Source: Candidatus Omnitrophota bacterium
GTDB lineage: Bacteria > Omnitrophota > Gorgyraeia > B26-G9
Length of the DNA stretch: 64,000 nt
Assembly: GCA_043826565.1 (NCBI GenBank)
Contig: JBDRPX010000028.1
Span: 16,607-80,606, forward strand
Direction of reading: 5' to 3'
Under the pieces are notes generated by a model. It searched no databases and was not told the origin of the DNA. It saw only the letters and a list, made by a program, of their open reading frames with translations. Below, one piece after another: positions 31,989 through 61,680 of the stretch. Positions within the stretch are counted from its first letter, which is position 1. The number at the start of each line of letters is the position of its first letter. A program made the translations under genes and the position numbers.

Positions 31989-32030
31989 AAGATGATAATT
32001 GAGAATTGACAGTTGAAAGTTGAGTATTAA

Positions 32031-32387
32031 ATGTCTAAAAGATTTGAAGATTTACAAGTATGGCAACTGGCGGTTGATTTGGCAGTTAAAATATATAAGA
32101 GTTCAAAGGTATTTCCTGCAGAAGAGATATATGGGTTGACTTCACAATTAAGAAGAGCTGTTGTATCAGTTTCTACTAATATTGCTGAAGGAAGCGGCAG
32201 ATCATCAAAAAAAGAATACCGCCATTTTGTTGAAATAGCGATTGGTTCAATTAATGAGGTGGAAAATCTTTGGATAATCGCACAAAAGATAGGATATTTA
32301 AAAGAAATAGATTTTAAGTTGATAAAAAATAATATTGAGGAAGTGCATGGATTATTAAATGGATTTCGCAGGTATTTGAGTAAGTAA
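32031..32387 (+). CDS. Four-helix-bundle protein (23S rRNA intervening-sequence protein family)
   Basis: 'FEDLQVWQLAVDLAVKIYK...FPAEEIYGLTSQLRRAVVSVSTNIAEGSGRSSKKEYRHF' is the hallmark of this family. 118 aa. Confidence 0.8.
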   Translation: MSKRFEDLQVWQLAVDLAVKIYKSSKVFPAEEIYGLTSQLRRAVVSVSTNIAEGSGRSSKKEYRHFVEIAIGSINEVENLWIIAQKIGYLKEIDFKLIKNNIEEVHGLLNGFRRYLSK

Positions 32388-32472
32388 TTTGTTTTTACAA
32401 TTATCAATTATTAGAAATATGAAAATTGCAGGTTGAATGTTGAAAGTTGGGTATAAATAGTTTTTTATTTTA

Positions 32473-32502
32473 CAATTGTCAATTGTCAATTGTCAATGTT
32501 CA
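32473..32502. repeat. Tandem heptamer array (AATTGTC)x3 plus a degenerate unit in the mtnP leader
   Basis: 'acaattgtcaattgtcaattgtcaatgttca' read directly. Further 7-periodic units at 31997-32024 and 32416-32447. Confidence 0.7.
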
Positions 32503-32518
32503 AATCAAAGGGGGATTA

Positions 32519-33375
32519 TGGAATCAGTTAAAATAGGAATTATCGGCGGCAGTGGAATTTATGATATTGAGGAAATCAAGGAAGTTGATGTTATTGAAAT
32601 CGATACTCCTTTTGGAAAACCTTCGGATAAGGTTATTATCGGTACTTTAGAAGGGGTGAAATTCGCTTTTCTGCCGCGTCACGGCCGGGGGCATACCATA
32701 TCACCGTCGGAGTTAAATTACCGGGCGAATATTTATGCTTTAAAATCATTGGGCGTAGAACAGATAATTTCTGTTTCCGCGGTGGGCAGTCTTAAGGAAG
32801 AATTAAAGCCGCGTGATTTTGTGGTTCCGGACCAGTTGTTTGACCGGACCAAGAACCGTCCGTGTACGTTTTTCGGCAATGGAATAGTCGCGCATGTCGG
32901 CGTTGCCGATCCGTTTTGTCCGGAATTAACCAGCCTGGTGTATGATACTATTAAGGAAGTCGGTATTCCCGTACATAAAGGCGGCACCTATGTTTGTATT
33001 GAAGGCCCGCAGTTTTCTACGCGCGCCGAATCAAACGCCTACCGTCAATTAGGATTTTCCATTATCGGCATGACCAATGTGCCGGAAGCAAAACTGGCCC
33101 GGGAAGCGGAAATATGTTATGTAACTGTGGCTTTGGTTACTGATTATGATGTGTGGAAAGCAGACGAAGAAGTTACTTTAGAAACCGTGCTGGCTAATCT
33201 TAATGCTAATTCCGCTAATGCCAAGAATTTCATCAAGGCCATCCTGCCGAAAATGGACCGGGCGCGTAATTGCGGATGTCCAAGCGCTTTAGCCACGGCG
33301 ATCGTTACATCCAAAGATATTGTTCCGAAAGAGACTTTGAATAAGCTTCAGCTTTTGATCGGGAAGTATCTATGA
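32519..33375 (+). CDS. mtnP: S-methyl-5'-thioadenosine phosphorylase
   Basis: RBS AAAGGGGGA then ATG (MESVKIGIIGGSGIY). PNP/MTAP-family motifs and phosphate-binding region. The ORF-track start at 32476 is less likely. Confidence 0.85.
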
Positions 33376-33466
33376 TTAGCTGAAATGTAGGGGCTAAGGA
33401 TTAGGGGCTTTGTCCCGTCTGTCAGACAGTAATCGCTGTTCTATTGATATCACTTATTAGATTAAA

Positions 33467-34339
33467 ATGATAAAACAAATTAGAAAAAAAATTAGAATTC
33501 TTTTTGATGTAATATCTTATTTTATCCTTTCTGTAAAGCTTCATCTTATGCATTCTTATTCATGTTATATCTGTGGAAATAAAACACCAAATATTTATCT
33601 GCCTTACTGGAGAAGGCCTGTTCTTAAATGTTCCAGATGTGATTTAAAATTTGCTTTAACAAAACAAGGCCTTGACGATGTTAAAGTAATTCATGGCCGC
33701 CGCCATTGGAACGATATTTATAAAGAACTAGGATGTGAGGATAACTCTTTGGCCTGGAAAGATTGGCAAAAATGGAAACACGGCTTATTAGAGAAGTTTG
33801 CTTTTTCCGAGATTGAAAAGGAGTTTGGTTCTGCAAGAAGTGTCTTAGATGTGGGGTGTGGAAATGGTATGTTTCTGGAAATGTTCCTGCAGCGTAAATG
33901 GAGATGCGTAGGTGTTGATTTCAGTGAATTTGTTAAAGATATTTCGTTTTCTCCAGAAATTAATATTATAATATCTCCTTTTGAAAAGACACGTTTTGAT
34001 AGCAAACAGTTTAATTTAATTACTTTAATGCATGTCTTAGAGCATTTTATTGATCCAGTTGCATGTTTAATTGAAATTAAAAGGATTTTGAAAGATGATG
34101 GATATTTATTAATGGAAGTTCCTTTGACCCAGGATTATTACGGTATTTATCATCAAAGTTATTTTACAAAAAAAAGCTTATATCTTTTGTTGAAAAAAGT
34201 TGGAATAAAGGTCGTACAATGTTTTACGTATAAAGATGAGATTAAAAAGAAGGCACACTATAATTTTGTAGTACTTGCTAACAAGCTGACCTCCTCCCTA
34301 AAAACTGTACCACTTGCAAATGTGAAAATCAAGTGGTAA
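33467..34339 (+). CDS. Class I SAM-dependent methyltransferase with an N-terminal Cys4 zinc-ribbon
   Basis: CYICGN...CSRCD zinc ribbon. SAM motif I 'VLDVGCGNGMF'. Confidence 0.65.
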   Translation: MIKQIRKKIRILFDVISYFILSVKLHLMHSYSCYICGNKTPNIYLPYWRRPVLKCSRCDLKFALTKQGLDDVKVIHGRRHWNDIYKELGCEDNSLAWKDWQKWKHGLLEKFAFSEIEKEFGSARSVLDVGCGNGMFLEMFLQRKWRCVGVDFSEFVKDISFSPEINIIISPFEKTRFDSKQFNLITLMHVLEHFIDPVACLIEIKRILKDDGYLLMEVPLTQDYYGIYHQSYFTKKSLYLLLKKVGIKVVQCFTYKDEIKKKAHYNFVVLANKLTSSLKTVPLANVKIKW

Positions 34340-34360
34340 AACAGTAAAAGGAGGTGCAGG

Positions 34361-34627
34361 ATGAAAGGGAAAAGATATCCGGTAGAGCAGATCATTGGGA
34401 TACTAAAAGAATGTGAATCGGGGATGAAAACGGGAGATTTATGCCGCAAGCATGGGATTTCGACCAATACTTTGTATAATTGGAAGGCGAAATACGCAGA
34501 CATGAATATCAGTGATGCTCGCAGGTTAAAAGAACTTGAGCAAGAAAACGGACGGCTTAAGAGATTAGTAGCGAATCAAGCATTAGATATCCAGATGCTC
34601 AAGGAGATAAACTCAAAAAACTGGTAA
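34361..34627 (+). CDS. IS3-family transposase OrfA (HTH protein)
   Basis: See the mobile_element entry. RBS AAAGGAGGTG upstream. Confidence 0.75.
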   Translation: MKGKRYPVEQIIGILKECESGMKTGDLCRKHGISTNTLYNWKAKYADMNISDARRLKELEQENGRLKRLVANQALDIQMLKEINSKNW

Positions 34628-34662
34628 AGCCCGAAGCAAAACGCGAAGCGGCAAAACATCTC

Positions 34663-35028
34663 ATGAATCGTTTCGGGCAGAGTCAAAGACGCAGTTGTAA
34701 AATTGTTAAATTACATCGATCATCGTATAGTTACAAACACCAGTGCAAAGATGATGGCAAAGCACGAACAAGAATTAAGCAATTAGCAAAAGAAAACCGT
34801 AAATGTATGTGTTTAGCAAAGAAGTTTTTCTCTAAACTGGAAGAATATCCAACAGATAAAGCTGCGTATCAAAGGAATATTCATAATACGCTTAAGGTTG
34901 CGAAGTATTTGAATAATATCAATAATTTCGATGTTTCAGAAATACGTGTTCTTTTAGACCAGCTTTTACAAATATGGCAGATGGTCTGGGCAGAGAAAGA
35001 TATTGAGGAAACGTTGCTCATTCCATAG
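34663..35028 (+). pseudogene. Truncated IS3 OrfB fragment (N-terminal HTH only, no DDE domain)
   Basis: Only the first ~30 aa resemble OrfB N-termini. The remainder is non-homologous and Lys-rich. No frameshift site (A6G-like) seen. Confidence 0.5.
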
Positions 35029-35239
35029 GTTTATGCCTAACCTTTAACGTGTTATGCTCCAATAAGTTACCTTCCAAAATGTGATAATATACCGCTATTC
35101 TTGATAATTCCATCTGTTTATGATAGTATAACATATCTATAATTATAAAATATATTAGGTGTGTACCATTGAAAATTGAATATTGAGTATGGTATCAAAG
35201 ATCAACGCTCATTTTGACAGAAGTTATTGACTATAATAT

Positions 35240-36369: not shown

Positions 36370-37251
36370 ATGCTGATATATTTTTTATACCGATTAGCAC
36401 AGTGGTTAGCGTGCAGCCTTCCTATTTCTGTCGGTTATCGTGTCGCGGTTTTTATAACCGGGCTTAAGTTTTCTTTTACGAAAAAAGAACGTGTTTTTGT
36501 AAATAATAATCTAAAGACAATTCTCGGCGCAGATGATCCGCGCATTCCGCAATACACCAGGGAATTATATAATAATTTCGGGAAATATCTTAATGATTTT
36601 TTCCGTTCTTCAAAGCTGGATAAAAAATTCATTGATAGATTTGTCCGGATCGAGAATTTACGATATATGGATGAAGCTTTAAGTAAAGGTAAGGGCGTGA
36701 TCGGGCTTACCGCTCATTTGGGCAACTGGGAACTTACGGCTTCGATTCTGGCGGTACTCGGGTATAAGATGAATGCTATTGCCCTGACACATAAAAATAA
36801 GCAGATTGACCGGATCTTTGATCATCAGAGAAAAGTAACAGGAATGAATGTTATTCACTTAGGGATTAGTGTCCGGCAGTGCTTTGCCGCGTTAAAACGC
36901 AATGAAATTGTCGGGATCTTAGGTGATCGTGATTTTTCCGGGGAAAACGGTGTCCTTATGGATTTTTTCGGCAAGAAGATGCTGATCCCCCGCGGCCCGG
37001 CAGTATTGAGTTTAAAAACAAAAGCGGCGATTGTGCCGGCTTTTGTTGTCCGCGAGACACAAGATGACCGGTGCTTTCGTTATATTTTTGAAAAACCGAT
37101 CTACCCGCAAAATTCCGGAAATGATGAAGAGGATATATTAAGGATGACCGAAAAGTTCACCCGGATTATCGAAAAGTATGTAAAGCAGTATCCTCAGCAG
37201 TGGTTTATATTCCACGAGTTCTGGAATCCGTCAAAGGTAGAAATAATATAA
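36370..37251 (+). CDS. Lipid A biosynthesis lauroyl/myristoyl acyltransferase family protein (LpxL/HtrB-like)
   Basis: N-terminal TM. 'TAHLGNWEL' HX4(D/E)-type acyltransferase motif. 'ILGDRDFSGENG' second motif. Size 293 aa. Confidence 0.75.
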   Translation: MLIYFLYRLAQWLACSLPISVGYRVAVFITGLKFSFTKKERVFVNNNLKTILGADDPRIPQYTRELYNNFGKYLNDFFRSSKLDKKFIDRFVRIENLRYMDEALSKGKGVIGLTAHLGNWELTASILAVLGYKMNAIALTHKNKQIDRIFDHQRKVTGMNVIHLGISVRQCFAALKRNEIVGILGDRDFSGENGVLMDFFGKKMLIPRGPAVLSLKTKAAIVPAFVVRETQDDRCFRYIFEKPIYPQNSGNDEEDILRMTEKFTRIIEKYVKQYPQQWFIFHEFWNPSKVEII

Positions 37252-37252
37252 T

Positions 37253-37345
37253 ATGAATATTGAATATGGAATATGGAATATGGAAAGTTGGATATAAATA
37301 GTTATATGTTTTTCAATTTTCAATTTTCAATTCTCAACTGTCAAT
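37253..37345. repeat. Two adjacent heptamer arrays, (GAATATG)x4 then (TTTTCAA)x3 plus 3 degenerate units, filling the intergenic region
   Basis: 'tatgaatattgaatatggaatatggaatatggaaagttgg' and 'tttttcaattttcaattttcaattctcaactgtcaattatcaaaattatg' read directly. Confidence 0.75.
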
Positions 37346-37355
37346 TATCAAAATT

Positions 37356-38710: not shown

Positions 38711-39164
38711 AGCAGTTGTAGAATCTTTTAAGGTTGTGGCTCTTTCGGCAATGCCGATTTCGGAATTAAGAGGAGCGATCCCTGTGGGAGTGATGATGGG
38801 GATACCGCCGCTGAAAGTGTTTGTTCTGGCGATTATCGGGAATATTTTGCCGGTTCTGCCGTTATTGTATTTATTGGATCCGGTTTCCGCGAAACTGCGC
38901 AAATTTAAATTATTTAAAAAGTTTTTCGATTGGTTATTCGAACGGACAAAACGAAAAGCGCAGATCGTGGAAAAGTATGAATTATTAGGCCTGATCATTT
39001 TAGTGGCGATCCCTCTGCCGATGACCGGTGCGTGGACCGGATGTATGGCGGCATCATTATTCGGCCTGAATAAAAAACTTTCTTTTATCGCGGTTACGGT
39101 GGGCGTGCTTATCGCGGGAATTATTGTGATGTTGTTAACTCTCGGCGCAAAGAATATTTTTTAA
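38706..39164 (+). CDS. Small membrane protein (COG2426-like putative small exporter family)
   Basis: Start ATGA overlaps the pcm stop region. 4 TM helices. The family call is tentative. Confidence 0.45.
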   Translation, partial: NEAVVESFKVVALSAMPISELRGAIPVGVMMGIPPLKVFVLAIIGNILPVLPLLYLLDPVSAKLRKFKLFKKFFDWLFERTKRKAQIVEKYELLGLIILVAIPLPMTGAWTGCMAASLFGLNKKLSFIAVTVGVLIAGIIVMLLTLGAKNIF

Positions 39165-39411
39165 TAAAACATTAACATTAAAAATTTAGTATAACAAGGC
39201 AGTTTATATATCGCAAAAACACGTCTTTGAGCTAAGTCTGCTGCGGCATCCTGCCTTGCAGCCGCGCGTTCTTACTATTTTGACATCCTTGTCAAAATCA
39301 CGTTCGAAAGCGCCGCTCAAAGAGAATTTTTGCGCTATCTAGTTAGCTTGTACATGTAAACATATATTCAAAATAGTACATGCATTATATATTAGTATTA
39401 AAATTTTTAAG

Positions 39412-39456
39412 TTTTGAATTTAATTTTTGACTTTTGACCTTTGACTTTTGACTTTA
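39412..39456. repeat. Tandem heptamer array (TTTTGAC-like x5) immediately upstream of the priA start
   Basis: 'tttgaatttaatttttgacttttgacctttgacttttgactttactattatg' contains 4 TTGACT -35-like hexamers in a row. Confidence 0.75.
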
Positions 39457-39461
39457 CTATT

Positions 39462-41474
39462 ATGTATATACAGGTTGCGGTAAATCTACCGCTAAAAAAT
39501 ATATTTGATTATTCGGTTCCCGCGGAGATGACCGCGGATATCGCTATTGGTAAGCGGGTCTGGGTGCCTTTTCGTAATCGGACGATCATCGGTTATATCA
39601 TCAGTATCAGCGAGCATACGGATATTCGCCGGACCCGGGCGATAAAAGAAGTGATCGATGAAAAACCTATTCTAGCACCGGATATGCTTAAGCTGACCCG
39701 CTGGATCGCGGATTATTATTTTTGTTCCTGGGGTGAGGCTATTGAAGCAGCTATCCCCGGGCCGTTTAAAAAAGGAAAAACTTCTATACGTCTTCGCGAT
39801 AAAGAAGAAGATGATCTTCCTCAAAAGCAGGAGGTTGCCCGGGGGCGGGAGAATCTTTTAAATGCGCATCAGGGAATTGCCTTAGTAGAAATCATCCAGC
39901 ATATTAATAAAGGTGAATTCGGCGCGTATCTTTTGCACGGGATTACGGCCAGTGGAAAAACCGAAGTATATTTTGGGGCGATTGAAGCGGCTTTGCACAA
40001 AGATAAAACCGCGATCGTGTTTGTCCCGGAAATCGCGCTTACTCCGCAGACTTTAGAACGGTTTGAGCGGTGCTTTGGTAAAGACAAGCTTGCGGTCGCG
40101 CACAGCCGTTTAAGTAATAGCGAAAAATTCATACAGTGGCAGAGGATTAAAAGCGGAGAAGTAAAAATTGTTGTCGGCCCGCGTTCGGCGATATTTACGC
40201 CGTTGGAAAATCTGGGGGTAATTGTTGTTGACGAAGAACATGAAAATACCTATAAACAGGAAGATGTGCCTCGTTATAATCTTGTAACAACAGCTATTAA
40301 GCGGGCGCAGATTTCTCATGCCGTGGTGATCTTAGGCAGTGCTACTCCTTCTTTAGAGTCCGCCTATCGCGCGAAAAAGGGTATTTTAAAATTAATTGAA
40401 TTGCCGGAACGCATAGAGGGCAGTGATCTGCCCACAGTGCAGATAGTGGATATGCGCGGCCAGCGCCGGATTGTAAAACGCCAGCCGATCATATCTAAAA
40501 TTTTAGAGGATAATATTAACCGCTGTTTAAATAAAAAAGAGCAGATAATTCTTTTTCTTAACCGCCGGGGGTTTTCTACATTTATCCACTGCGCAAAGTG
40601 CGGTTATGTGGTGGGGTGTAAACGCTGTAATGTCGCTTTAGTGCATCATTTTGACCGGCAGAATCTTATCTGCCATCATTGTAATTATAAAACATCTTTG
40701 CCGAAAATATGCCCGGAATGTAATAGCGATTACTTGCGTTATGTCGGAGCGGGAACCCAAAAAGTGGAAAGCGAATTACACCGCCTTTTTCCGAACGCGG
40801 CTATCGGCCGGATGGATTCGGATGCTTTAGCGAAAAAGACCGCGCATTTTGAGGCTTTTGAGGATTTTAAATCCCGGAAAATCGATATTATGGTCGGTAC
40901 GCAGGTACTGGCGAAAGGTCTTGATTTTCCCAATGTTACTTTAGTCGGAGTAATATCCGCGGATATTACTTTAAATATCCCGGATTTCCGGGCTTCGGAG
41001 AGGACGTTTTCTTTATTGACGCAGGTTGCCGGCCGGGCCGGCCGCGGAAAAACTCCGGGCAAGGTTATTATCCAGACGTATACTCCGGAGCACTATGCGA
41101 TTCAATGCGCGCTAAAGCATGATTATGATAGTTTCTATAAGCAGGAGATCGTGTTTCGCGAGCAATTAAAACTGCCTCCTTTTGTGGAGATGGTATCCGT
41201 AATGCTGCGTTCGAAAAAAGAAGAGAACGCGATCAAGACCGCGCAAACTTTGGCAAATCTTTTAAGTATTAAAAATAAGGACAAAGGTATTCTGATTATG
41301 GGGCCGTCGCCATTACCGGTGGCCAAGCTGCGCGGATATCACCGCTGGGCCGTGACTTTAAAAGGCGCGGATGTTTTAAAAATGAATAAACTTCTGGAAT
41401 TGTGTTTTGCCAACTGGAAACCTTCATCAACAGTTAAGATGGCGGTGGATGTTGAGCCGCGGATGGTGGTTTAG
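39462..41474 (+). CDS. priA: Primosomal protein N' (replication restart helicase PriA)
   Basis: Walker A 'GITASGKTEVY', DEEH box 'VVDEEHE', Cys-rich zinc-binding insert (CAKCGY..CKRCN..CHHCN..CPEC), helicase motif 'QVAGRAGR'. Confidence 0.9.
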   Translation: MYIQVAVNLPLKNIFDYSVPAEMTADIAIGKRVWVPFRNRTIIGYIISISEHTDIRRTRAIKEVIDEKPILAPDMLKLTRWIADYYFCSWGEAIEAAIPGPFKKGKTSIRLRDKEEDDLPQKQEVARGRENLLNAHQGIALVEIIQHINKGEFGAYLLHGITASGKTEVYFGAIEAALHKDKTAIVFVPEIALTPQTLERFERCFGKDKLAVAHSRLSNSEKFIQWQRIKSGEVKIVVGPRSAIFTPLENLGVIVVDEEHENTYKQEDVPRYNLVTTAIKRAQISHAVVILGSATPSLESAYRAKKGILKLIELPERIEGSDLPTVQIVDMRGQRRIVKRQPIISKILEDNINRCLNKKEQIILFLNRRGFSTFIHCAKCGYVVGCKRCNVALVHHFDRQNLICHHCNYKTSLPKICPECNSDYLRYVGAGTQKVESELHRLFPNAAIGRMDSDALAKKTAHFEAFEDFKSRKIDIMVGTQVLAKGLDFPNVTLVGVISADITLNIPDFRASERTFSLLTQVAGRAGRGKTPGKVIIQTYTPEHYAIQCALKHDYDSFYKQEIVFREQLKLPPFVEMVSVMLRSKKEENAIKTAQTLANLLSIKNKDKGILIMGPSPLPVAKLRGYHRWAVTLKGADVLKMNKLLELCFANWKPSSTVKMAVDVEPRMVV

Positions 41475-42088: not shown

Positions 42089-42115
42089 ATAAAGATGAAA
42101 ATTGAAAGATGAGAG

Positions 42116-43057
42116 ATGAAAATTGTATTTTTCGGATCTTCAGAGTTTGCTGTAGAAAGCCTGAAAAAACTTATCGATAAATATGATGTTGTTGCGGTGT
42201 TTACCCGGCCGGATCGTCCCAAGGGCCGGCATTTGCATTTAAGCAAGACTCCGGTTAAAATATATACCGAGGAGAGGGGGCTTACTCTATTGCAGCCGGA
42301 AGATGCCGGCAGTGCGGAATCTATTCTTCAGCTTAAAAGCTATGCCGCGGATTTATTTGTTGTAGTCAGTTACGGAACGATACTTAGTAAACAGGTTTTG
42401 GAAATTCCAGGGCAGTGCTGTATAAATGTGCATGCGTCATTGCTTCCGCGCTGGAGAGGCGCGGCGCCGATCAACCGGGCGGTTATGAGCCGTGATGAGC
42501 AGACCGGCGTTAGTATTATCCGGATGAATGAAGCCATGGATGCCGGAGATGTTATCTTAACCAAAAGCATAAGTATCGGGGAAGATGATTCGATAGTACT
42601 TTTTGATAAACTTGCTAAACTCGGAGCAGAGGCGCTGATCCAGGCCGTTGATCAGATCATTGCCGGAACAGCACAGTTTATTCCTCAGGATGAAAATGAA
42701 ATAACTATTGCGCATAAGCTTAAGAAAAGCGGCGGGCTTATTGATTGGCAGAATAAAGCTCTGGATATTCATAGCCAAGTCCGCGGACTTTTGCCATGGC
42801 CGTGCGCGTTTGCATATTATAAGGAAAAGTTTTTAAAAATTTTAAAAACAAGTGTTGCGGATAGTAATAAAGGTTTTTCGGCCGGAGAGATTATTGCCGC
42901 TGATCAGAAAGAAGGTATTATTGTCGCCTGCGGAGAAGGGGCGATCCTGATCGAGCAATTGCAGATTGAAGGCAGACGGGCAATGTCCGCGCATGATTTT
43001 TTATTAGGACATAAAATGATTCCCGGAGAAAAACTGGGAGATAAATGGGAAAAATAG
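42116..43057 (+). CDS. fmt: Methionyl-tRNA formyltransferase
   Basis: 'KIVFFGSSEFAVESL', 'INVHASLLPRWRGAAPINRAVM', C-terminal Fmt domain. Confidence 0.9.
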   Translation: MKIVFFGSSEFAVESLKKLIDKYDVVAVFTRPDRPKGRHLHLSKTPVKIYTEERGLTLLQPEDAGSAESILQLKSYAADLFVVVSYGTILSKQVLEIPGQCCINVHASLLPRWRGAAPINRAVMSRDEQTGVSIIRMNEAMDAGDVILTKSISIGEDDSIVLFDKLAKLGAEALIQAVDQIIAGTAQFIPQDENEITIAHKLKKSGGLIDWQNKALDIHSQVRGLLPWPCAFAYYKEKFLKILKTSVADSNKGFSAGEIIAADQKEGIIVACGEGAILIEQLQIEGRRAMSAHDFLLGHKMIPGEKLGDKWEK

Positions 43058-44078: not shown

Positions 44079-44089
44079 ATAATAAGTAA

Positions 44090-44235
44090 TTAATTCAAAA
44101 GTCAAAGGGCAAAAGTCAAAACTACAAGTTAAAATTCAAAATTAAAAAGAAAATAATTTTAAAAAATTTAGTTAACAAAAACTTTTGATTTTTGAATTGA
44201 ATTTTTGAGTTTTGCATTTTAAGTTTTGACTTTAA
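44090..44235. repeat. Long imperfect inverted repeat (about 50-nt arms) built from heptamer units, lying between the two GalT paralogs
   Basis: Left arm 'aaagtcaaagggcaaaagtcaaaactacaagttaaaattcaaaa'. Right arm 'ttttgatttttgaattgaatttttgagttttgcattttaagttttgacttt'. The reverse complement of the right arm aligns with the left arm with a few mismatches; the centre is near 44160. Confidence 0.6.
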
Positions 44236-44236
44236 T

Positions 44237-45265
44237 ATGATAGGAAGAAAAAATATGCAGCAGTTACGACGTGACCCAATTTTAGGCCGATGGATTATTG
44301 TGCATTATGACCGGGAAAAAGGGCCTCAGGATTATCAGGTTGAAGCCGTTAAAAAAGATGACAAAATGAAAGTCTGTCCTTTTTGCCCGGGACATGAGGT
44401 AAAAACTCCCGTGGAAATATATGTAGATAGAACTCCGAAAGCGCATTCGGAAGGCCCGGATTGGAATTTACGGGTTATTGCTAATAAATTTCCCGCGCTT
44501 TGTGTCGAAGGTGATTTATGCCGGGAGGGGTTGGGGATATATGATCAAATGAACGGCGTGGGAGCGCATGAAGTTATTATCGAGACACCGTATCATGATA
44601 AGGACCTGGGTGATTTACCGGTAGCGGATGTTAAAAAAGTCATCCTGGCTTATAAACACAGGTGTCTTGATCTAAAGAGAGATACCCGTTTTCAATATAT
44701 ATTAATATTTAAAAATCATGGAGCTCCGGCCGGAGCTTCTTTAGAACATTCCCATTCCCAGCTGATCGTTCTGCCGATTATGCCGAAAAAGGTTTTGCAG
44801 GCAATACAGGGGGCGGAGAATTATTATAAGTTTAAAGAACGCTGTGTGTATTGCGATATTATCCATCAGGAATTAGAGGATAAAGAGAGGCTGGTTTACG
44901 AGAATAAAAATTTTGTCGCTTTTGCTCCGTTTGCTTCCAGTTCGCCGTTTGAGACCTGGATAATTCCCAAGCGCCATGTTTCCCATTTTTATAATATTTC
45001 CGACGAACTTATCGAAGATTGCGCGGATATGCTGCGGGAGATTCTCTGGAGATTAAAAAAAGTATTGACAGACCCGCCATTTAATTTTATTATTAACACT
45101 GCTCCTATTCAGCGTGAAGAGGAGCTTAGTTTTTATCACTGGCACATAGAGATAGTGCCAAAACTCACCAGAGCTGCCGGGTTTGAATGGGGAACCGGTT
45201 TTTATATAAACCCGAGCCCGCCGGAAAAAGCTGCGCAATGGTTGCGCGAAGCAAAGAAAAAATAG
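44237..45265 (+). CDS. GalT/HIT-like nucleotidyltransferase, tandem paralog
   Basis: 'CPFCPGHE', 'HWHIEIVP', 'GAHEVIIETPYH'. About 45% identity to the upstream copy by eye. Confidence 0.7.
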   Translation: MIGRKNMQQLRRDPILGRWIIVHYDREKGPQDYQVEAVKKDDKMKVCPFCPGHEVKTPVEIYVDRTPKAHSEGPDWNLRVIANKFPALCVEGDLCREGLGIYDQMNGVGAHEVIIETPYHDKDLGDLPVADVKKVILAYKHRCLDLKRDTRFQYILIFKNHGAPAGASLEHSHSQLIVLPIMPKKVLQAIQGAENYYKFKERCVYCDIIHQELEDKERLVYENKNFVAFAPFASSSPFETWIIPKRHVSHFYNISDELIEDCADMLREILWRLKKVLTDPPFNFIINTAPIQREEELSFYHWHIEIVPKLTRAAGFEWGTGFYINPSPPEKAAQWLREAKKK

Positions 45266-50480: not shown

Positions 50481-52874
50481 ATGAGAAAAAATAAAAGTAT
50501 TTATCGAGCAAGTTTACCTGCCGGGGGAATGCTGATCATTACCGCATTACTTATGGTTTTTGCGGTTAATGGATATGGTCAATCCGCGCCGGAAAAACCG
50601 CAGGCACAGGTATCTTCTATTGTCGCGACAATAGAACAGAATATGTCGGCTTTGGCCAAAGAATTAGATGATAACAAAAAAGCTTATGAACAGCTCAAGG
50701 AAGAGTATGATAAAAAACAGCAGGATTTAAGTTTTAGCCAGGATGAGGTAAAGGAATTAGAGAAGAATTTTGAAGAGCTAAAACAGGATTTTAAACAGAA
50801 ATCGCAGGCATTATTAGAAAAAAAGGCTGATGAGGTCGGAGCATACAAGGCGCAGATAGACAAATTGCAAAATGAAATAGACGAGAGAGGAAAAACAATT
50901 GTCCGGAAAAAGGAAGAGATCATATCTTTAGAAACCCAGCTGAAAGAAGAAAAGAGAATACTAGAGGACAAAGAAAAATCGTTAAAAGCAAAAGATTTAG
51001 AGATCAATGATCTGCAAAAACAATTAAGCGACTTTGACCGGCTGCTTAAAGAAGCACATAATTCCATTAATGACCTCAGGCAGGAGGATACCAAAAAAGA
51101 TAATCTGGTTGAATCTTTTCGCGCGGAAATGCATAAAAAACAAAAAGAATTTGATGATAATATGCAAAATGAACGAGGCCAGTTCCAAAAGAGGCTTTTT
51201 GATGAGGAGCAGAAAGAAGAGAAATTAAGAAGACAAAATGCCGACCAATTAAAGGAGTATACTAAACAGCTTCAGGATAAAGATGATTTAATGTCCGCGC
51301 AGAAAGAGATGCTGGTTAAAAAAGACAAGCTTATTAATGATCTTAATATTAGTTTGGATAAGCAAAAACTGGATAATGAAAATATTCGTAAACAGAATAA
51401 TATTCTGGCCGAAGAAAAGAAACAGCTGCTGCTTAATATTTCTGTTTTTGAAGAGGAGATCGGTAAGCAGGGGTCTTTATTGAAGAATGGCAAACAGAAT
51501 TTGACTGTCGCGCAAAAGGAACAAGAGTATCTTCAGAAGGAGCAGCAGGATCTTAAAAAGAGATATGAAGAATTACACAATGAAAAAGAGGTTTATTTGA
51601 GCAAAAGTCAGTATCTTGAAAAACAGGTAGAAGAAAGAGATAAAAAATTGCAGGCATTGCGGGATGATATCCAGAAACAGGTAACTTTGCTGCATCAGCA
51701 GCTTGGCGGGGTGGTTCAGCAGACTCAGGACCCGCAGAATAAACAAGCATTGAAAGATAAACGGGATGAGCTTGAACAGATAAATCTTTCCTCTAAGCAG
51801 CAGGAGCGGGAATTACGCAAACAAATAGATGATCTTAAATCAGAAAAGCAGGATCTTTTTAATCAGAGTAATAATCTGATCCAGGAAAAACTTCAGATTC
51901 TGGCCAGGATGGTCCAGCTGGAAGCGCAGCAAAAGGCTTCCGGAGCTTCGGATGGAGCTGTCGGTATGTCTGAGGAAGAAATTGCCTATGTAAAACATGA
52001 ATTAGAGAATCTTAATAAATCATTAGATAAAAAAGCAAGTGAACTGGGTAAAGTCCAGGAAGAAAATTATAAGCTGTTTAAAGAAAAAGAGGAGCTGCGA
52101 AAACTTGTTAATGATTGCAATGATCAGATAACTTCTCAAAAGAAGCAGCTTAATGACCTGCAGGAAATGATGCGGAATAATGAGAATGAAAGCCAGTTGA
52201 AAGTTCGCGATATGAGAAAAGACCTTGATGGTCAAAGGGCTGAGTTCCAGAGAGTTTCTAAAGAATTGGAGAAAAAGAATGCTTTATATGATAAGGATAT
52301 AAAGAAATACTTAGCCCGCTGTGAAGATTTCCGGGGTAAATTAGCGGCTTCCCAGGAGAAATATGATACGATGAAAGCTGATTACGATATTTATGTAAAA
52401 CGTATCAAAGAAGTATACTCAGAGCAGCGCAAATTAGAAGGAAGGGTCCAAGAGCAGATTAAACTTCTTAATACATACTCAAAAACTATTGACGAGCTGA
52501 GCGCGGACAACAAGTCTATGGAAACGGAAAATGAGCGGCTGGGGTTGTTGTTAAAGACAATTCCGCAGAAATTAAATACTTTGGAAAGTGATGTCGCCCA
52601 ATTACGCAAACAAAATTCTACTTTACATTATAACTTAGGGGTTTTTCATACGCAGCGCCAGGAATATCCGCAGGCAATCGCGGAATTTAAACAGTCTTTA
52701 AAATATAATCCCAATGACGCGAGTACCCATTATAATATGGGCGTTATTTATTCGCAGTATTTAGTTGATGAATCCAGTGCGGTTATGCATTTTAGGCATT
52801 ATCTGTCGCTTGATCCTAATGATAAAGATTCTCAGCGGGCAAAAGAATATATTTTGCTCTGGGGAAGTAAATAA
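50481..52874 (+). CDS. Membrane-anchored long coiled-coil protein with a C-terminal TPR domain (MshN/PilF-like partner candidate), copy A
   Basis: N-terminal TM/signal anchor. About 650 aa of K/E/Q-rich heptad coiled coil. C-terminal 'LHYNLGVFHTQRQEYPQAIAEFKQSLKYNPNDASTHYNMGVIY' TPR units. Confidence 0.6.
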   Translation: MRKNKSIYRASLPAGGMLIITALLMVFAVNGYGQSAPEKPQAQVSSIVATIEQNMSALAKELDDNKKAYEQLKEEYDKKQQDLSFSQDEVKELEKNFEELKQDFKQKSQALLEKKADEVGAYKAQIDKLQNEIDERGKTIVRKKEEIISLETQLKEEKRILEDKEKSLKAKDLEINDLQKQLSDFDRLLKEAHNSINDLRQEDTKKDNLVESFRAEMHKKQKEFDDNMQNERGQFQKRLFDEEQKEEKLRRQNADQLKEYTKQLQDKDDLMSAQKEMLVKKDKLINDLNISLDKQKLDNENIRKQNNILAEEKKQLLLNISVFEEEIGKQGSLLKNGKQNLTVAQKEQEYLQKEQQDLKKRYEELHNEKEVYLSKSQYLEKQVEERDKKLQALRDDIQKQVTLLHQQLGGVVQQTQDPQNKQALKDKRDELEQINLSSKQQERELRKQIDDLKSEKQDLFNQSNNLIQEKLQILARMVQLEAQQKASGASDGAVGMSEEEIAYVKHELENLNKSLDKKASELGKVQEENYKLFKEKEELRKLVNDCNDQITSQKKQLNDLQEMMRNNENESQLKVRDMRKDLDGQRAEFQRVSKELEKKNALYDKDIKKYLARCEDFRGKLAASQEKYDTMKADYDIYVKRIKEVYSEQRKLEGRVQEQIKLLNTYSKTIDELSADNKSMETENERLGLLLKTIPQKLNTLESDVAQLRKQNSTLHYNLGVFHTQRQEYPQAIAEFKQSLKYNPNDASTHYNMGVIYSQYLVDESSAVMHFRHYLSLDPNDKDSQRAKEYILLWGSK

Positions 52875-52887
52875 AAACAGAATACAG

Positions 52888-54711
52888 ATGACAGAATACA
52901 GAAAACAGAAATTAAATATCCTGATAATATATTTTGCTCTGGCTTTATGCGGCAGTGTGTGCCGGGCAGATGAGAATAAAGAATATGCCGCTTTGCCAGT
53001 ACCCGCGGCTAATGGAATGATCTCAAATTTGGCGATAACGAAAGAGCGGATATCTTTGGAGTTGCGGGATATAGATATTAAAGACGCGCTTAAATATTTA
53101 GCATCCAAGGCCGAGATTAACATTGTTCCGACAAATCAGGTTTCCGGACGCATAACCTTAATGATTAAAGATGCGCCGATTGATGATGTTTTTGAAATGG
53201 TTATCCGTTCCAACGGGCTGGCGTATGATAAGATTGGAAGTATTTACAATGTTATGACGGAAACAGAATACAAGGAACGCTATGGACAGGCGTTTGATGA
53301 CCGCAGGCATCTTGAGGTCTTTCATCTTAAATATGTAATACCGGAACAGGCGTATTCAATAATTGATTCTATCAAAAGCACAATCGGAAAAGTTTTAATA
53401 GAGAACGATTCCGGGACGATTTTAGTTTTGGATACCCCGGAGAAATTAGAAGAAATAAGAAAGACCATTAAATCCTTAGAGCGCAAAGGTACTGTACGGA
53501 TGTTTGATTTAAAGTATGCCAACGCAGAAGATGTCGCAAAACAGCTTAAGTCACAGCTGGATAAGAAAAAAGTAGGGTCTATCCGGGCGGATCAGCGTAC
53601 GAATCAGGTGATTGTGCAGACTTTACCGGAACGTATGGACAATATTGCCAAATTGATCGAAGGCTTAGATCAAAAGACAAAAGAAGTTTTGATCCAGGCC
53701 CGGATCATCCAGATAAAACTTACGGATAATCTTAGTGAAGGCGTGGAATGGGAAGGATTGTTTGAGCTCTCAAAAGGCAGTAACAGCACGACGTATCTGG
53801 GCAGTACCCCGGTCGCGGCTGTGGGCAGTCCGGTGGATACTTGGCGCTCAAGACAGCAGGTGCTTGCCGATACCGGATATGTCGGGTCATATCCGTTTAG
53901 CGGAACATCCACGGATTATGCCAGCGGGCAGAGCAGTGTCGGGACCGAACAAATGCATGTCGGAGTTGTCGGCGAGAGTGATTATGATGTATTGATAAAA
54001 TATTTAAAAACATTAGGGCATGTGCAGATATTATCTAATCCAAAACTGGCGGTAACGAATAATCAGCAGGCACGTGTGCATGTCGGCGAGCGGCAGGCAT
54101 ATATAACTACGGTTACTACGGCCGGACAGACGACAACCACAGTTTCTGAAGAAGTTACTTTTCTTGACGTGGGTTTGCAGTTGTTTATTACTCCGACGAT
54201 TAACGATCAGGGATATGTAACATTAAATATTAAACCGGAGATAAGCAGTGTGGTGGGTACATTGTTAACCGCGCAGAATAACAAGATTCCGATCATTGAT
54301 ACTTCCACAGCGGAAACTACGGTCATGGTCAAGGATGGAGCAACAGTTGTAGTCGGAGGATTGCGCAGAGAGGAAGAGACATCTAGTTCCCGGCGCATGC
54401 CGATACTGGGAAGTATCCCTTTTTTGGGGAATTTATTTAAGACTGAAGATCGAGGAAAATCACGTAATGAATTATTAATCATGGTTACCGCGCATATTAT
54501 CGAAGGGGATGAGTTGATCACCGGCGATGACCGTGATTTTGGAAGTAAATCACATGAAAAATATCAGGAATATAATTTAATGACTAACGAATCGGATTTA
54601 ACAGAGTATGAGAAAGAACAGAAAAAAACATTAGAGCAGAAGATGTACCAGGAATATCCGGAATATAAGGAAGATAAAGAATTTTACCCCGACTTAAAAC
54701 CATTAAAATAA
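52888..54711 (+). CDS. Secretin, copy B (paralog of 48689..50476)
   Basis: Start ATG 52888 with signal peptide (MTEYRKQKLNILIIYFALALCGSVCRA). Collinear with copy A at about 50% identity ('ILSNPKLAVTNNQQARVHVGERQAYITTVTT', 'VVVGGLRREEE', 'MPILGSIPFLGNLFK'). Confidence 0.85.
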   Translation: MTEYRKQKLNILIIYFALALCGSVCRADENKEYAALPVPAANGMISNLAITKERISLELRDIDIKDALKYLASKAEINIVPTNQVSGRITLMIKDAPIDDVFEMVIRSNGLAYDKIGSIYNVMTETEYKERYGQAFDDRRHLEVFHLKYVIPEQAYSIIDSIKSTIGKVLIENDSGTILVLDTPEKLEEIRKTIKSLERKGTVRMFDLKYANAEDVAKQLKSQLDKKKVGSIRADQRTNQVIVQTLPERMDNIAKLIEGLDQKTKEVLIQARIIQIKLTDNLSEGVEWEGLFELSKGSNSTTYLGSTPVAAVGSPVDTWRSRQQVLADTGYVGSYPFSGTSTDYASGQSSVGTEQMHVGVVGESDYDVLIKYLKTLGHVQILSNPKLAVTNNQQARVHVGERQAYITTVTTAGQTTTTVSEEVTFLDVGLQLFITPTINDQGYVTLNIKPEISSVVGTLLTAQNNKIPIIDTSTAETTVMVKDGATVVVGGLRREEETSSSRRMPILGSIPFLGNLFKTEDRGKSRNELLIMVTAHIIEGDELITGDDRDFGSKSHEKYQEYNLMTNESDLTEYEKEQKKTLEQKMYQEYPEYKEDKEFYPDLKPLK

Positions 54712-57467: not shown

Positions 57468-57470
57468 AAT

Positions 57471-59165: not shown

Positions 59166-59239
59166 ATAATGATTACATCGATTGAATACAGATTACACAG
59201 ATTAAATATAAGTTTATCGAATAGAGTTATGGTGATGGA

Positions 59240-60139
59240 ATGATCAGGAAAGTTAAGAAATATATTACTGTTACGATGATGGTATCTATCCTTTCTGCGG
59301 GGGGAATTTGTCCGGCACAAGATTTTAAAATGGAAGCTGACGCGCATTACCAAAAGGGGTTGATTTTATATCATCAAGGCAAATATGATCAAGCCCAGGA
59401 AGAATTTAGCCAAGCCAAAGAATTGCTTAAAAAAAACGAAGCCGAAAAGCCGGCTGTTTTAGAAAAAAAAACAGAAGTGATTAAAAAACAGACGAAAGTG
59501 ATCGAACTTAAGGCAGAAGATAAAAAAGAAGATACTGTGCCTAAAAAGAAACCGGTTATTGAATATACTATCGGAGCGGGTGATGAGCTGGTTGTTTCGG
59601 TATGGGAAAACGCGGATCTTGATAGAGAAACGATTGTGCGTCCGGATGGTAAGATATCTTTTGCGCTTATTGGAGATATGAAAGCTGCCGGGCTTACGAT
59701 TGAACAGTTTAAGAATAATTTAACCGAAGCTCTTCAAGAATATATCCGTTATCCTCAGGTATCTGTTTACATAAAAAAAATGGGTGGGGAAAAAGTCATT
59801 GTTTTAGGAGAAGTGCATGACCCGGGAGTGTATGAGGTTACCGGCCGCAGGACGATTTTAGAAGCTATCGGCATGGCCGGGGGATTTACCAAAGAAGCGG
59901 TGCTGAAAAGTGTGATTTTGGTCAAAGGCGGTGTGGATCAGCCTGTGCCCAAAAAGCTTAATCTTACCCGGGCTTTGTATAAAGGTGAAAGTATTGAGAA
60001 TGTCGTTCTTGAATCTGAAGATATCGTTTATGTGCCGAGTAAGGTTATTTCCGACGTAAGCTATTTCCTTAAAACAATTCTTGATCCGATCACATCCAGT
60101 ATTTATATAAATAAAGAAGTTCGTACTTGGGGAGAGTAA
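59240..60139 (+). CDS. Polysaccharide export protein (Wza/Poly_export plus SLBB domains)
   Basis: Signal peptide. 'YTIGAGDELVVSVWENADLDRETIVRPDGKISFALIGDMKAAGLTIEQFKNNLTEAL' is the Poly_export/PES motif. A second SLBB-like 'YVPS' segment. Confidence 0.75.
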   Translation: MIRKVKKYITVTMMVSILSAGGICPAQDFKMEADAHYQKGLILYHQGKYDQAQEEFSQAKELLKKNEAEKPAVLEKKTEVIKKQTKVIELKAEDKKEDTVPKKKPVIEYTIGAGDELVVSVWENADLDRETIVRPDGKISFALIGDMKAAGLTIEQFKNNLTEALQEYIRYPQVSVYIKKMGGEKVIVLGEVHDPGVYEVTGRRTILEAIGMAGGFTKEAVLKSVILVKGGVDQPVPKKLNLTRALYKGESIENVVLESEDIVYVPSKVISDVSYFLKTILDPITSSIYINKEVRTWGE

Positions 60140-60142
60140 TAA

Positions 60143-61446
60143 TGGAAGATGTGAAGTTAGTAACTAAAAATATTAAATCATTTGCTTCAAATAAAGAAAT
60201 TGAATCTGTATTTCGTCCGATGAAATTAATTCACCATGCCCTTATGAAAAAGCAGTGTCCGGGCAATGACTACTTAGGCTGGCTGGATTTGCCTTCTAAA
60301 TTACCGGCAGCGCTGATCAAGGATATCGAGCAAACCGCAAAAAAGATAAGAAAACAGGCCGATGCTTTTGTCTGCCTGGGGATTGGCGGGTCATATCTGG
60401 GAGCTAAAGCGGCTATAGAATTTTTAAAACCGACATTTGCTAATGAACTGAATACGGAAAAACCGAAGATTTATTTTGCCGGACATAATTTAAGTGCGGA
60501 TTATCTCGCGGATCTATTTAGCGTATTAAAGAACAAAAAGATCGTGGTTAATGTAATATCAAAATCAGGCACAACTACTGAGACTGCGGTAGTATTCAGG
60601 ATCATTAAGCAGTATATGGAAAAGCTCTATGGTAAAAAGAAATTAAAAGACAGGATTATTTGCACGACGGACCAATCAAAGGGAGCTTTACTTAAATTAG
60701 CCAAGGATGAAGGATTTAAAACTTTTGTGATTCCGGATGATGTGGGCGGCAGGTTTTCTGTGCTTACTCCGGTGGGGCTTTTACCGATTGCTGTAGCCGG
60801 GATCAATATTCGCGAGCTTTTAAAAGGTGCGGCTGATTTTGAAAAAAAATGCAATAGTTTAACCTTGCGCAATAATCCGGCATATCAATACGCGGCGATA
60901 AGACATATTCTTTATAAAAAAGGAAAAGTTATTGAGATATTATCATCTTTCCATCCAGCGCTTCATTATATCTCGGAATGGTGGAAACAGCTTTTTGGCG
61001 AAAGTGAAGGCAAGGATAATAAGGGGGTTTTTCCGGCATCATGTGATTTTACTACAGATCTGCATTCTTTAGGGCAGATAATTCAGGAAGGACAACGTAA
61101 TATATTTGAAACATTTATGGTCATAAATAAAACTTCGGCAAAATGCAGTATTCCCAAAGACAAAGAAAATCTGGACGGTTTAAACTATTTGGCGGGTAAG
61201 GATATTGAATTTGTCAATCGTAAGGCTTATGAGGCCACTGCCAGTGCGCATTATGACGGAGAAGTGCCGAATATGACCATTGAAATACCTTCACGTAATG
61301 CCTATTCTCTGGGGCAATTATTTTATTTATTCGAAAAGGCGATCGCGATGTCCGGATTACTTAGCGGCGTGAATCCGTTTAACCAGCCGGGCGTAGAAGC
61401 TTATAAAAAGAAAATGTTTAAGCTGCTGGGCAAACCGGGAACATAA
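60143..61446 (+). CDS. pgi: Glucose-6-phosphate isomerase
   Basis: RBS GGGGAGAG then ATG 60143. 'CLGIGGSYLGAKAAIEF', 'VISKSGTTTETAV', 'FGESEGKDNKG', 'VNPFNQPGVEAYK' are PGI family motifs. Confidence 0.85.
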
Positions 61447-61561
61447 TAATAGGACATCCTGAGAGGTTCCACGAACAAAGTGAAGTGCAACCGGGAGTGT
61501 AATAGGAAACTTGGCTTATAGCTTATGGTTAATAGCTGATGGGAAAAACAGATACAAGATA

Positions 61562-61594
61562 AAAGTCACAAGTCTCAAGTTACAAGTCGCAAGA
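61562..61594. repeat. Tandem heptamer array (AAGTCNC-like x4); a second TCAA-unit array lies at 61631-61658
   Basis: 'aaagtcacaagtctcaagttacaagtcgcaag' and 'ttctcaattttcaatactcaatattcag' read directly. Confidence 0.7.
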
Positions 61595-61680
61595 AAAAAT
61601 AAAACTATGCCGAAGTTCGGTTTATTACTATTCTCAATTTTCAATACTCAATATTCAGTAATAAAATAAATAAAAAACTT

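Follow-up and report, generated by a model that had tools for sequence, protein, structure and literature searches.

Tandem arrays of heptanucleotides were found at the stop-to-start junctions of co-directional genes in a 64,000-nucleotide (nt) stretch of a Candidatus Omnitrophota genome (assembly GCA_043826565.1, contig JBDRPX010000028.1, positions 16,607 to 80,606; referred to here as the window and numbered from its first nucleotide). The elements carrying these arrays were lineage specific and their copies were mutually related, and across phyla such arrays were associated with the gene family of the 23S rRNA intervening-sequence protein (S23p, or IVP), a four-helix-bundle protein. The evidence leans towards the arrays being the arms, or the decayed or solo halves, of palindromic insertion elements that are built of heptamers and resemble the intervening sequences (IVSs) of rRNA genes. 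A full-length element would consist of a purine-rich arm, the four-helix-bundle gene and a pyrimidine-rich complementary arm, and from this cassette would derive both miniatures of about 100 to 160 nt without an open reading frame (ORF) and single arms. Heptamer arrays of this class are known, if unexplained, and the window extends them to a new phylum and to units that are diverse and rich in AT; the link of such arrays to IVS-protein cassettes and their ORF-less derivatives is added and demonstrated here.

Heptamer arrays at gene junctions

Period 7 was the only enriched repeat period of the window. In a lag-specific self-match scan of 28-nt segments with a threshold of at least 23 matches, 49 segments scored at lag 7, 6 at lag 9, 3 at lag 14 and none at lags 2 to 6, 8, 10 to 13 or 15. 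A 21-nt scan detected nine arrays at lag 7, four at lag 9 and none at lags 4 to 6, 8 or 10 to 12. In the intergenic DNA of positions 31989 to 61682, where the baseline match fraction was about 0.29 to 0.31, lag 7 reached 0.402, and lags 14 and 21 reached 0.383 and 0.339, respectively; coding DNA exhibited a 3-nt periodicity only. Seven of the nine stringent arrays fell in intergenic DNA, which amounted to 3,890 nt (6% of the window), and this corresponds to an approximately 50-fold enrichment. With tandem 7-nt units in at least three copies, beyond chance expectation, the arrays were of the type described as heptanucleotide long simple sequence repeats (SSRs) and as short tandemly repeated repetitive (STRR) sequences, and, as is typical of that type, they were over-represented in intergenic DNA and under-represented in coding DNA.

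Tandem Repeats Finder (TRF) called period-7 arrays at 31993-32028, 32420-32449, 32473-32497, 35168-35186, 37250-37285, 37310-37351, 39425-39455, 42091-42121, 44095-44149, 44183-44220, 52874-52911 and 61563-61593; the intergenic spacers of positions 1 to 31988 contained none. A previous reading of the nucleotide letters alone (the sequence-only reading) had reported pervasive arrays of this period upstream of genes. The arrays were present at essentially all of the sites that it listed, as judged by TRF and the lag-7-only signal. One site, at 59181-59210, proved not to be a period-7 array, with 8 of 14 matches at lag 7 and 11 of 14 at lag 9, GATTA motifs at a 9- to 11-nt spacing and a TRF period of 20; the array at 35163-35195 was present but weak. 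The array at 45266-45293, three in-frame arrays in an RHS gene, the pairing of arms, the core shared by two elements and the enclosed four-helix-bundle gene had been missed.

Two types of array could be distinguished on the coding strand. Purine-rich arrays (purine fraction, 0.58 to 0.84) were located on the 5' side of the spacer, mostly no more than about 17 nt from the upstream stop codon, and T-rich arrays (0.31 to 0.46) were placed 5' of a start codon. All of the genes flanking arrays were on the plus strand. Four spacers each contained one purine-rich and one T-rich array; the members of three of these pairs were complementary, while those at 61563 and 61631 were not.

The window was compared with syntenic contigs of three relatives (L021, L022 and L023), in which PriA was 76, 71 and 67% identical, respectively, to PriA of the window; the latter protein had a 100% identical match in an NCBI metagenome-assembled genome named Candidatus Omnitrophota bacterium. 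The common gene order comprised a response regulator, mtnP, monogalactosyldiacylglycerol (MGDG) synthase, LpxL, GT2, PCMT, an Sm exporter, PriA, a TPR gene on the minus strand, fmt, two GalT genes, GAPDH, MerR, AAA and a secretin, and this gene run is almost certainly an operon. In the relatives, the junction between LpxL and GT2 measured 3, 5 or 23 nt, that between the Sm exporter and PriA measured 1 to 9 nt or was overlapping, and the two GalT genes shared a TAATG overlap. The corresponding spacers of the window measured 104, 298 and 176 nt and were made up largely of arrays. Since the arrays fill junctions that are tight in the relatives, most of them are lineage-specific insertions between the cistrons of an operon and not ancestral leaders. 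The sequence-only reading had placed the arrays in 5' leaders; they are indeed non-coding and 5' of starts, but with junctions of 1 to 23 nt or overlaps in the relatives they are mostly not primary leaders. The relatives had heptamer arrays of their own, with other units and at other junctions, and lag 7 was again the sole scoring lag, so that array content is dynamic within the clade. A single further copy of the window sequence was detected, on Logan contig L001 (SRR26275510), and was 100% identical over 5,841 nt; look-ups with additional proteins of the window yielded short contigs of that sample or no match.

N-terminal alignment with the relatives placed the true starts of mtnP at 32518, GT2 at 37356, PriA at 39462, fmt at 42116 and the second GalT gene (GalT2) at 44255. 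Arrays had been said to end within a few nucleotides of the start codon, and this was so for GT2, priA and fmt; a Shine-Dalgarno (SD) sequence was present between array and ATG for GalT2 and mtnP. Several genes 3' of arrays, including GT2 and priA, were without an SD sequence. The arrays were prone to mislead start-codon calling: the automatic call starts priA at a TTG within the TTTTGAC array (39441; 677 amino acids on the Logan contig) and the ORF list starts GalT2 at ATG 44237, whereas the alignments support the downstream starts given above.

Additional material relative to the relatives was detected between mtnP and the MGDG-synthase gene (33376-35239). It contains a class I methyltransferase gene (33467-34339), a fragment of an IS3-family OrfA (34361-34627) and a 121-amino-acid ORF, and the comparison indicates that this operon has also received insertions of a second kind.

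An IVP cassette and related elements

Proteins of the S23p/IVP family are very widespread four-helix bundles and are relatives of Avd, the accessory protein of diversity-generating retroelements. One gene of this family was present in the window, within a cassette located between the response-regulator gene and mtnP (Table 1). Its product matched PF05635 (E 3e-37), TIGR02436 (117.6 bits versus a cut-off of 24) and PDB entry 2GSC, XCC0516 (E 2e-21). The 5' arm of the cassette begins 5 nt past the response-regulator stop codon and stops 5 nt short of the IVP ATG, and the gene was missing from the same junction in all three relatives. As in rRNA IVSs, an ORF of PF05635/TIGR02436 was bounded by complementary termini and directly preceded by heptamers. 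The cassette was not inserted in helix 25 or 45 of a 23S rRNA gene; searches of the window detected no rRNA or other Rfam family at the gathering threshold and no tRNA.

The two ends of the cassette aligned to the two halves of an ORF-less element, element B, with scores of 48 for the 5' end (shuffle maximum, 35) and 38 for the 3' end (shuffle maximum, 32). An inverted match between 31993-32031 and 32464-32502 had 74% identity over 39 nt and 85% over 26 nt. Judged by these alignments, element B looks like the IVP cassette minus its ORF. Past the 3' arm of element B come an SD sequence and then the ATG of mtnP. A second ORF-less element, element C, occupies the entire spacer from the LpxL stop codon to the GT2 start codon, with reverse-complementary arms at 37252-37293 and 37303-37351. 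Homology between B and C extended over about 100 nt and included the non-repetitive core G[GA]TATAAATAGTT, with a score of 108 compared to a shuffle maximum of 46; blastn detected 85% identity over 55 nt.

Element D is located between the two GalT-like genes and has an AT-rich loop between its arms, which are 73% complementary over 52 nt (44098-44149 and 44182-44233); the 3' arm is followed by AGGAAG and then by the true GalT2 ATG. The solo T-rich array preceding priA proved to be a copy of an arm of element D; blastn aligned it with the 3' arm (44190-44234) at 84% identity across 45 nt and, in reverse complement, with the 5' arm (44095-44121) at 96% across 27 nt. Because homology was shared in this way, including a non-repetitive core and arm identity, elements B and C and the D arm and priA array are element copies and not independent microsatellites. 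RNA folding of elements B (-19.9 kcal/mol), C and D (-28.9 kcal/mol) produced z scores versus shuffles of -2.1, -2.1 and -3.4, respectively; the solo arrays had z scores of -0.1 to +2.0.

The spacer 5' of priA contained, in addition, a GC-richer and highly structured element of about 150 nt (39195-39350), with an RNA minimum free energy of -55.8 kcal/mol and a z score of -5.6. It was missing from the 1- to 9-nt junction of the relatives, and a search of positions 39150 to 39470 detected no Rfam match even at an E value of 1 or lower. A weak AT-rich inverted pair (39163-39187 and 39401-25) brackets this element, which may hence represent another type of cargo, carried in the loop between heptamer arms, or else a small RNA.

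Table 1. Heptamer arrays and array-bearing elements of the window
Feature	Position (nt)	Strand	Description
In-frame arrays in RHS/YD-repeat gene	14142-14181, 14545-14577, 14739-14786	+	Encode QVTSPMSQVTSYEYD-type YD repeats
5' arm of IVP cassette	31993-32025	+	TGATAAT TGAGAAT TGACAGT TGAAAGT TGAGT; purine fraction 0.64; TRF
Four-helix-bundle gene (23S rRNA intervening-sequence protein, S23p, IVP)	32031-32387	+	Cassette cargo
3' arm remnant of IVP cassette	32398-32411	+	Short; ACAATTA TCAATTA
Element B, ORF-less	32412-32517	+	5' arm 32416-32447; core GGGTATAAATAGTTTTTTATTT; 3' arm 32473-32507 (CAATTGT units)
Weak solo purine-rich array	35163-35195	+	ATTGAAA x2.7; TRF score 31; 12/14 at lag 7; 5' of MGDG-synthase-like gene
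Element C, ORF-less, second copy of B	37246-37355	+	5' arm GAATATG x4-5; core GGATATAAATAGTT; 3' arm TTTTCAA x5-6
Solo T-rich half-element	39412-39456	+	TTTTGAC x4; ends 5 nt before priA ATG 39462
Purine-rich fmt array	42091-42125	+	Contains fmt start codon (42116); TRF; fold z +2.0
Element D, between two GalT-like genes	44079-44254	+	5' arm TCAAAAG type, 44095-44149; 3' arm CTTTTGA type, 44183-44235
G-rich array directly past GalT2 stop	45266-45293	+	TAGCGGG TAGCGTT TAGCGGA; TRF period 14
Purine-rich array	52874-52911	+	AATACAG/AAAACAG x5; begins at TPR-gene stop; fold z +1.2
Array pair before zf-HC2 gene	61563-61658	+	Purine-rich AAGTCAC x4 (61563-61593); T-rich ATTCTCA x4 (61631-61658)

IVP genes and heptamer arrays across phyla

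Metagenome contigs were scanned with the four-helix-bundle protein of the window, and 80 loci with a GC content of 32 to 70% were obtained, of which 69 were non-redundant. Stringent lag-7 arrays were concentrated around the IVP gene at these 69 loci, with 30 of 38 located no more than 200 nt from it in a zone that represented 17.6% of the sequence (p = 2.5e-16). Arrays occurred at a density of 22 per 100 kb at IVP loci, while unrelated control loci totaling 341 kb had 0.6 per 100 kb; as controls, contigs from a scan with Fmt, from distant phyla (at most 43% identity), were utilized. Reverse-complementary flanks with an ungapped score of at least 14 were detected at 58 loci, namely 57 metagenome loci and the window cassette; shuffle maxima were about 9 to 14 but were obtained with a stricter mismatch penalty (-1.5 versus -1.0), and the margin for scores of at least 14 is approximate. 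Overall, at least 57 of the 69 non-redundant loci had reverse-complementary arms, which were mostly heptameric. The units varied by lineage and included TTCATGG/CCATGAA, GGGGTCA/TGACCCC, GTAGCGA, AGTGCGA, GGTCGTG and the 8-mers GAGTTTGA and AGTTTGAT; despite these differences, the complementarity of the arms was kept throughout. The 5' arm was the purine-rich one at 42 loci versus 12, and the IVP gene was co-oriented with 50 of 60 neighboring ORFs (p = 1.6e-7). These results indicated that the association of arrays with the IVP gene family extends across phyla.

The same arrangement was present in annotated plasmid records of cultured organisms, where the 3' arm typically ends at the ATG of the next gene. 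Nostocales dominated the plasmid matches for IVP genes, and these genes had heptamer arms. The 5' and 3' arms consisted of GGGTGTA and CTACACC units in a Calothrix brevissima plasmid, CAGGAGT and ACTCCTG in a Nostoc punctiforme plasmid, and GGTTTAA and AAACCTT in a Riemerella anatipestifer plasmid. In the Picosynechococcus sp. PCC 7003 plasmid NZ_CP016476.1 (125952-127493), a four-helix-bundle gene with AGGAGAT and ATCTCCT arms interrupts a type III-B operon at the junction of cas10/cmr2 with cmr3. Insertion of IVP genes within cas operons has been described by Zhang and Ye, and the published association of the IVP family with CRISPR (PMC3936711, PMC10910872) may reflect junction insertions of this kind or heptamer arrays read as CRISPR-like.

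At one metagenome locus with a GC content of 70% (Ga0335081_10498195, 69-1379), an IVP cassette with GGGGTCA/TGACCCC arms was located inside a DnaE2/ImuC-like frame, and a 436-amino-acid ORF runs through the cassette in another frame (... VRLGLRFVKGIREEA). Two readings are offered for this cassette: it was inserted in frame at a loop where the protein tolerates it, or it interrupts a protein-coding gene as an intervening sequence.

Candidate explanations and related repeat systems

The rRNA IVSs of Coxiella burnetii and Leptospira resemble the window elements in having a PF05635/TIGR02436 cargo between stem-forming terminal inverted repeats, with tandem heptamers immediately before the ORF start and a poor SD sequence. 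In the Coxiella 23S rRNA IVS, two to three GACAGAT heptamers, in a strain-variable number, precede the S23p ORF (Warrier et al. 2016, PMC4990558), and the inverted repeats at the termini make up a 28-bp stem that is cleaved by RNase III at the first repeat (PMC4990558). The window elements differ in lying between protein-coding cistrons, in having multi-unit heptamer arrays as both arms and in that the copy with an ORF is outnumbered by derivatives that have no ORF or a single arm. Apart from the Coxiella case, a general link of IVP/S23p genes with heptamer arrays was not found in the literature searched, a search that was incomplete.

By extension, the window elements would be co-transcribed with the host operon, as suggested by the overlap of genes in the relatives and by a cargo that is oriented like its neighbors. 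By analogy with rRNA IVSs, their arms would pair into a long imperfect stem, which could likewise be a substrate for RNase III. Such a stem would re-juxtapose the upstream stop and downstream start codons, and an insertion of 100 to 500 nt would hence be tolerable even between formerly overlapping cistrons. The predicted closing pair of element C (37254-37350) leaves the LpxL stop codon 3 nt before the stem and the GT2 start codon 5 nt after it, and would thus roughly restore the 3- to 23-nt spacing of the relatives. For the gene that follows, the G-poor, U-rich 3' arm could then provide a leader that is unstructured and has no SD sequence. These specific RNA-level steps (co-transcription, stem formation, RNase III cleavage and a leader role), drawn from the rRNA systems, are offered as a tentative proposal.

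Several observations weigh against an origin of the arrays from IVS-like insertion elements or against the RNA-level steps. The window has about 15 arrays but a single IVP gene, and 62 kb of sequence from the relatives contained arrays but no IVP gene, so that most arrays are not physically tied to the gene. The fmt, secretin, 35163 and 45266 arrays were without a partner arm, and the 61563/61631 pair was non-complementary. The stems, rich in AT, are interrupted and have little stability (-20 to -29 kcal/mol). Mismatches of the G-U and A-C types in the arms numbered 61 and 77, respectively, and this lack of a G-U excess provides no specific pointer to a stem at the RNA level over one at the DNA level. 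Neither a target-site duplication nor a mobilizing enzyme for the elements was identified.

An unlikely alternative origin is replication slippage in situ, by which the arrays would be microsatellites of the heptanucleotide long-SSR class that are kept where a 7-nt unit is harmless, with the pairs and the IVP gene being incidental. Heptanucleotides are the dominant class of long SSRs in many bacterial genomes, and polymerase slippage has been suggested as their source, according to summaries of Mrazek et al. (2007). Unit sequences differed between arrays, the relatives had different arrays at different junctions, and the fmt array was found to be a 21-nt (3 x 7) tandem duplication of the conserved, native fmt start region, with GATGAAAATTG at 42094 and 42115. 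The in-frame arrays of the RHS/YD-repeat gene are of a similar nature, and heptamer duplication evidently acts inside this variable gene as well. Slippage does not, however, account for the homology of about 100 nt between elements B and C, which includes a non-repetitive core, or for the identity of the priA array with an arm of element D. Moreover, the arms are systematically reverse-complementary and strand-asymmetric, arrays cluster at IVP genes across phyla, and independent events do not yield complementary arrays on both sides of a gene. The fmt duplication and the RHS arrays do indicate that tandem duplication of 7, 14 or 21 nt works alongside dispersal, and under an origin from insertion elements it is this slippage, acting on native sequence too, that would make and reshape the heptamer texture.

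The sequence-only reading had favored a regulatory role, with slippage shifting the spacing between promoter and ribosome-binding site, and this interpretation was partly supported at best. In its general form, as sites for protein or ribosome binding in leaders (S1, CsrA/Csp-like or ToxR-like) or as phase-variable spacers, cis regulation is quite improbable. Several arrays abut or overlap start codons, including those of the SD-less GT2 and priA genes, and solo arrays were no more structured than shuffles and tended to be less so, as is the case for S1-type leaders. The same placement has been read as translational control for TAACTGA repeats (PMC4679880), and TTTTGAT heptads in the ctxAB promoter of Vibrio cholerae recruit a transcriptional activator. 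Arrays were nevertheless missing from the orthologous, tightly coupled junctions of relatives with 67 to 76% identity in PriA, and no unit was common to them that could provide a single binding specificity. The downstream genes (priA, fmt, mtnP and lipid and glycosyl transferases) are housekeeping genes and not contingency loci. The promoter-like geometry was also poor, and a shift in the spacing between promoter and ribosome-binding site found no support: with one exception, the spacings of TTGAC motifs were incompatible with 16 to 18 nt, and there was usually no ribosome-binding site between array and start.

Three specific roles were examined and rejected. A promoter consensus scan detected 57 sites compared to 35 expected in AT-rich DNA, which excluded promoters as a general explanation; the best match inside an array was on the wrong strand, and the only plus-strand promoter-like site in an array (39434, TTGACC N18 TATTAT) has a -10 region that overlaps the priA ATG. 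Terminators were rejected as no array hairpin was followed by a run of T residues. Phase-variable contingency SSRs were rejected on account of the housekeeping nature of the downstream genes, the location of arrays between stop and start codons within operons and the poor promoter geometry.

Heptamer arrays comparable to those of the window have been published, although the sequence-only reading had not recognized the pattern as a described element; besides the Coxiella IVS, they are known from Xanthomonas and Nostoc and from Beggiatoaceae, Cyanobacteria and Bacteroidetes. Xanthomonas genomes contain about 185 GGGAATC arrays each, typically of about 4 units, with 70 to 75 convergent inverted pairs (Rehm et al. 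2015, PMC4692102). These arrays, of unknown function, lie between co-oriented ORFs and are G-rich after the stop codon and C-rich before the start codon; they are transcribed, their length and sequence differ from one related species to another, and similar arrays (GGGGAYT) are present in Nostoc (PMC4692102). The window arrays have the same arrangement, with co-oriented ORFs, a purine- or G-rich strand after the stop codon and the complementary strand before the start codon. They differ in that the Xanthomonas and Nostoc repeats have one dominant G-rich unit per genome, read as G-quadruplex (G4) forming, whereas the window units are AT-rich and diverse; an S23p/IVP link was not reported for the former (PMC4692102). 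The units GGGAATC and GACAGAT had no tandem copies in the window.

The in vitro formation of G4 structures by the Xanthomonas and Nostoc units (PMC4692102) is compatible with a purely DNA-level role, in which cruciforms, slipped strands or, in GC-rich versions, G4 structures would act as recombination or landing sites or as barriers to replication or transcription. The symmetry of G-U and A-C mismatches in the arms is also compatible with DNA pairing, and arrays of identical units could support homologous exchange of cargo. Such a role is highly improbable, given that the window units, being AT-rich, have no more than one G each, so that no G4 is possible, and that the transcription-oriented strand asymmetry and the co-orientation of cargo point to a constraint on the transcript.

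Direct TAACTGA repeats of marine Beggiatoaceae, Cyanobacteria and Bacteroidetes form mostly intergenic arrays of 2 to 6 units (MacGregor 2015, PMC4679880); forward arrays end about 1 nt before starts, canonical SD sequences are rare, and translational control was proposed (PMC4679880). The window arrays resemble these repeats in being placed next to starts and in having essential genes among those downstream. The TAACTGA network consists, by contrast, of a single unit genome-wide with inverted pairs almost absent (one case), and in the window TAACTGA occurred as seven singletons and never in tandem.

The window arrays also resemble cyanobacterial STRR sequences, in which heptanucleotides likewise form tandem arrays scattered through non-coding DNA and which are carried by Nostocales, the taxa that dominated the plasmid matches for IVP genes. 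The STRR heptamers, reportedly characterized by Mazel et al. in 1990 and mentioned for Calothrix PCC 7601, are said to be defined by the units CCCCAGT, TTGGTCA and CAACAGT, and we know of no gene association described for them; none of these units was tandem in the window. Similarity to MITEs (miniature inverted-repeat transposable elements) and repetitive extragenic palindromes was evident in that the elements were small (about 100 to 160 nt), non-coding, palindromic, multi-copy and intergenic. There were several homologous copies with inverted termini, of which only two to three were visible in 64 kb, and like MITEs they appear to have arisen through internal deletions in a longer element that bears a gene. 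Unlike MITEs, they had tandem arrays as arms, a cargo that is no known mobility enzyme and no partner transposase, and a comparison of junctions with those of the relatives showed no clear target-site duplication; the sole transposase trace was the unrelated IS3 OrfA fragment.

An origin of the arrays from IVS-like insertion elements would tie three separate puzzles (the excess of heptanucleotides, the function of the S23p/IVP protein and the origin of rRNA IVSs) into one anatomy, that of a gene, or nothing, within complementary heptamer arrays exactly between a stop codon and the next start codon. If the stems were processed, or stop and start codons re-juxtaposed, this would provide a general route to insertions that are invisible to the operon and also a source of processing sites in operon mRNA. 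A far broader proposal, and on the whole a rather unlikely one, is that IVP genes belong together with inverted heptamer arrays in a single widespread system of self-sealing intervening sequences, which across phyla would insert in RNA genes that are transcribed and also between protein-coding cistrons or even inside them; the excess heptanucleotide repeats of bacteria (STRR, Xanthomonas/Nostoc and TAACTGA) would be largely its footprint, and its protein would bind, protect or propagate the arrays. In practical terms, the arrays break short-read assemblies, can pass for CRISPR-like arrays and disturb start-codon calls, as for priA and GalT2.

Among the remaining arrays, that at 35163-35195 had no excess RNA structure (z +1.2). 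The spacer containing the 45266-45293 array measured 115 nt in the window and 14 nt in L021, and the 52874-52911 array contains the probable secretin start codon (ATG 52899). The arms of the 61563-61658 pair are separated by a 37-nt spacer with a small GC hairpin; the layout is that of the other purine-rich/T-rich pairs, but the arms were not complementary and the fold had a z score of -0.1.

The RHS/YD-repeat protein (11788-16008) has 1,406 amino acids and is encoded in part by a 9-mer DNA repeat specifying PDNPDNPDN (11942-11970, perfect x3.2); a small ORF, possibly an immunity gene, overlaps the end of the RHS gene (16005-16415). Further upstream, a 2,498-amino-acid ORF (2262-9758) is preceded by a gene for a CarboxypepD_reg-domain protein (92-1153). 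Other short tandem repeats, perfect or nearly so and not of period 7, were TTCAATTAACGAATA x2 at 26980-27009, 5' of position 27144, and ACTTTTTTTATAGT x2.6 at 46509-46544, past a terminator-like hairpin 3' of GAPDH.

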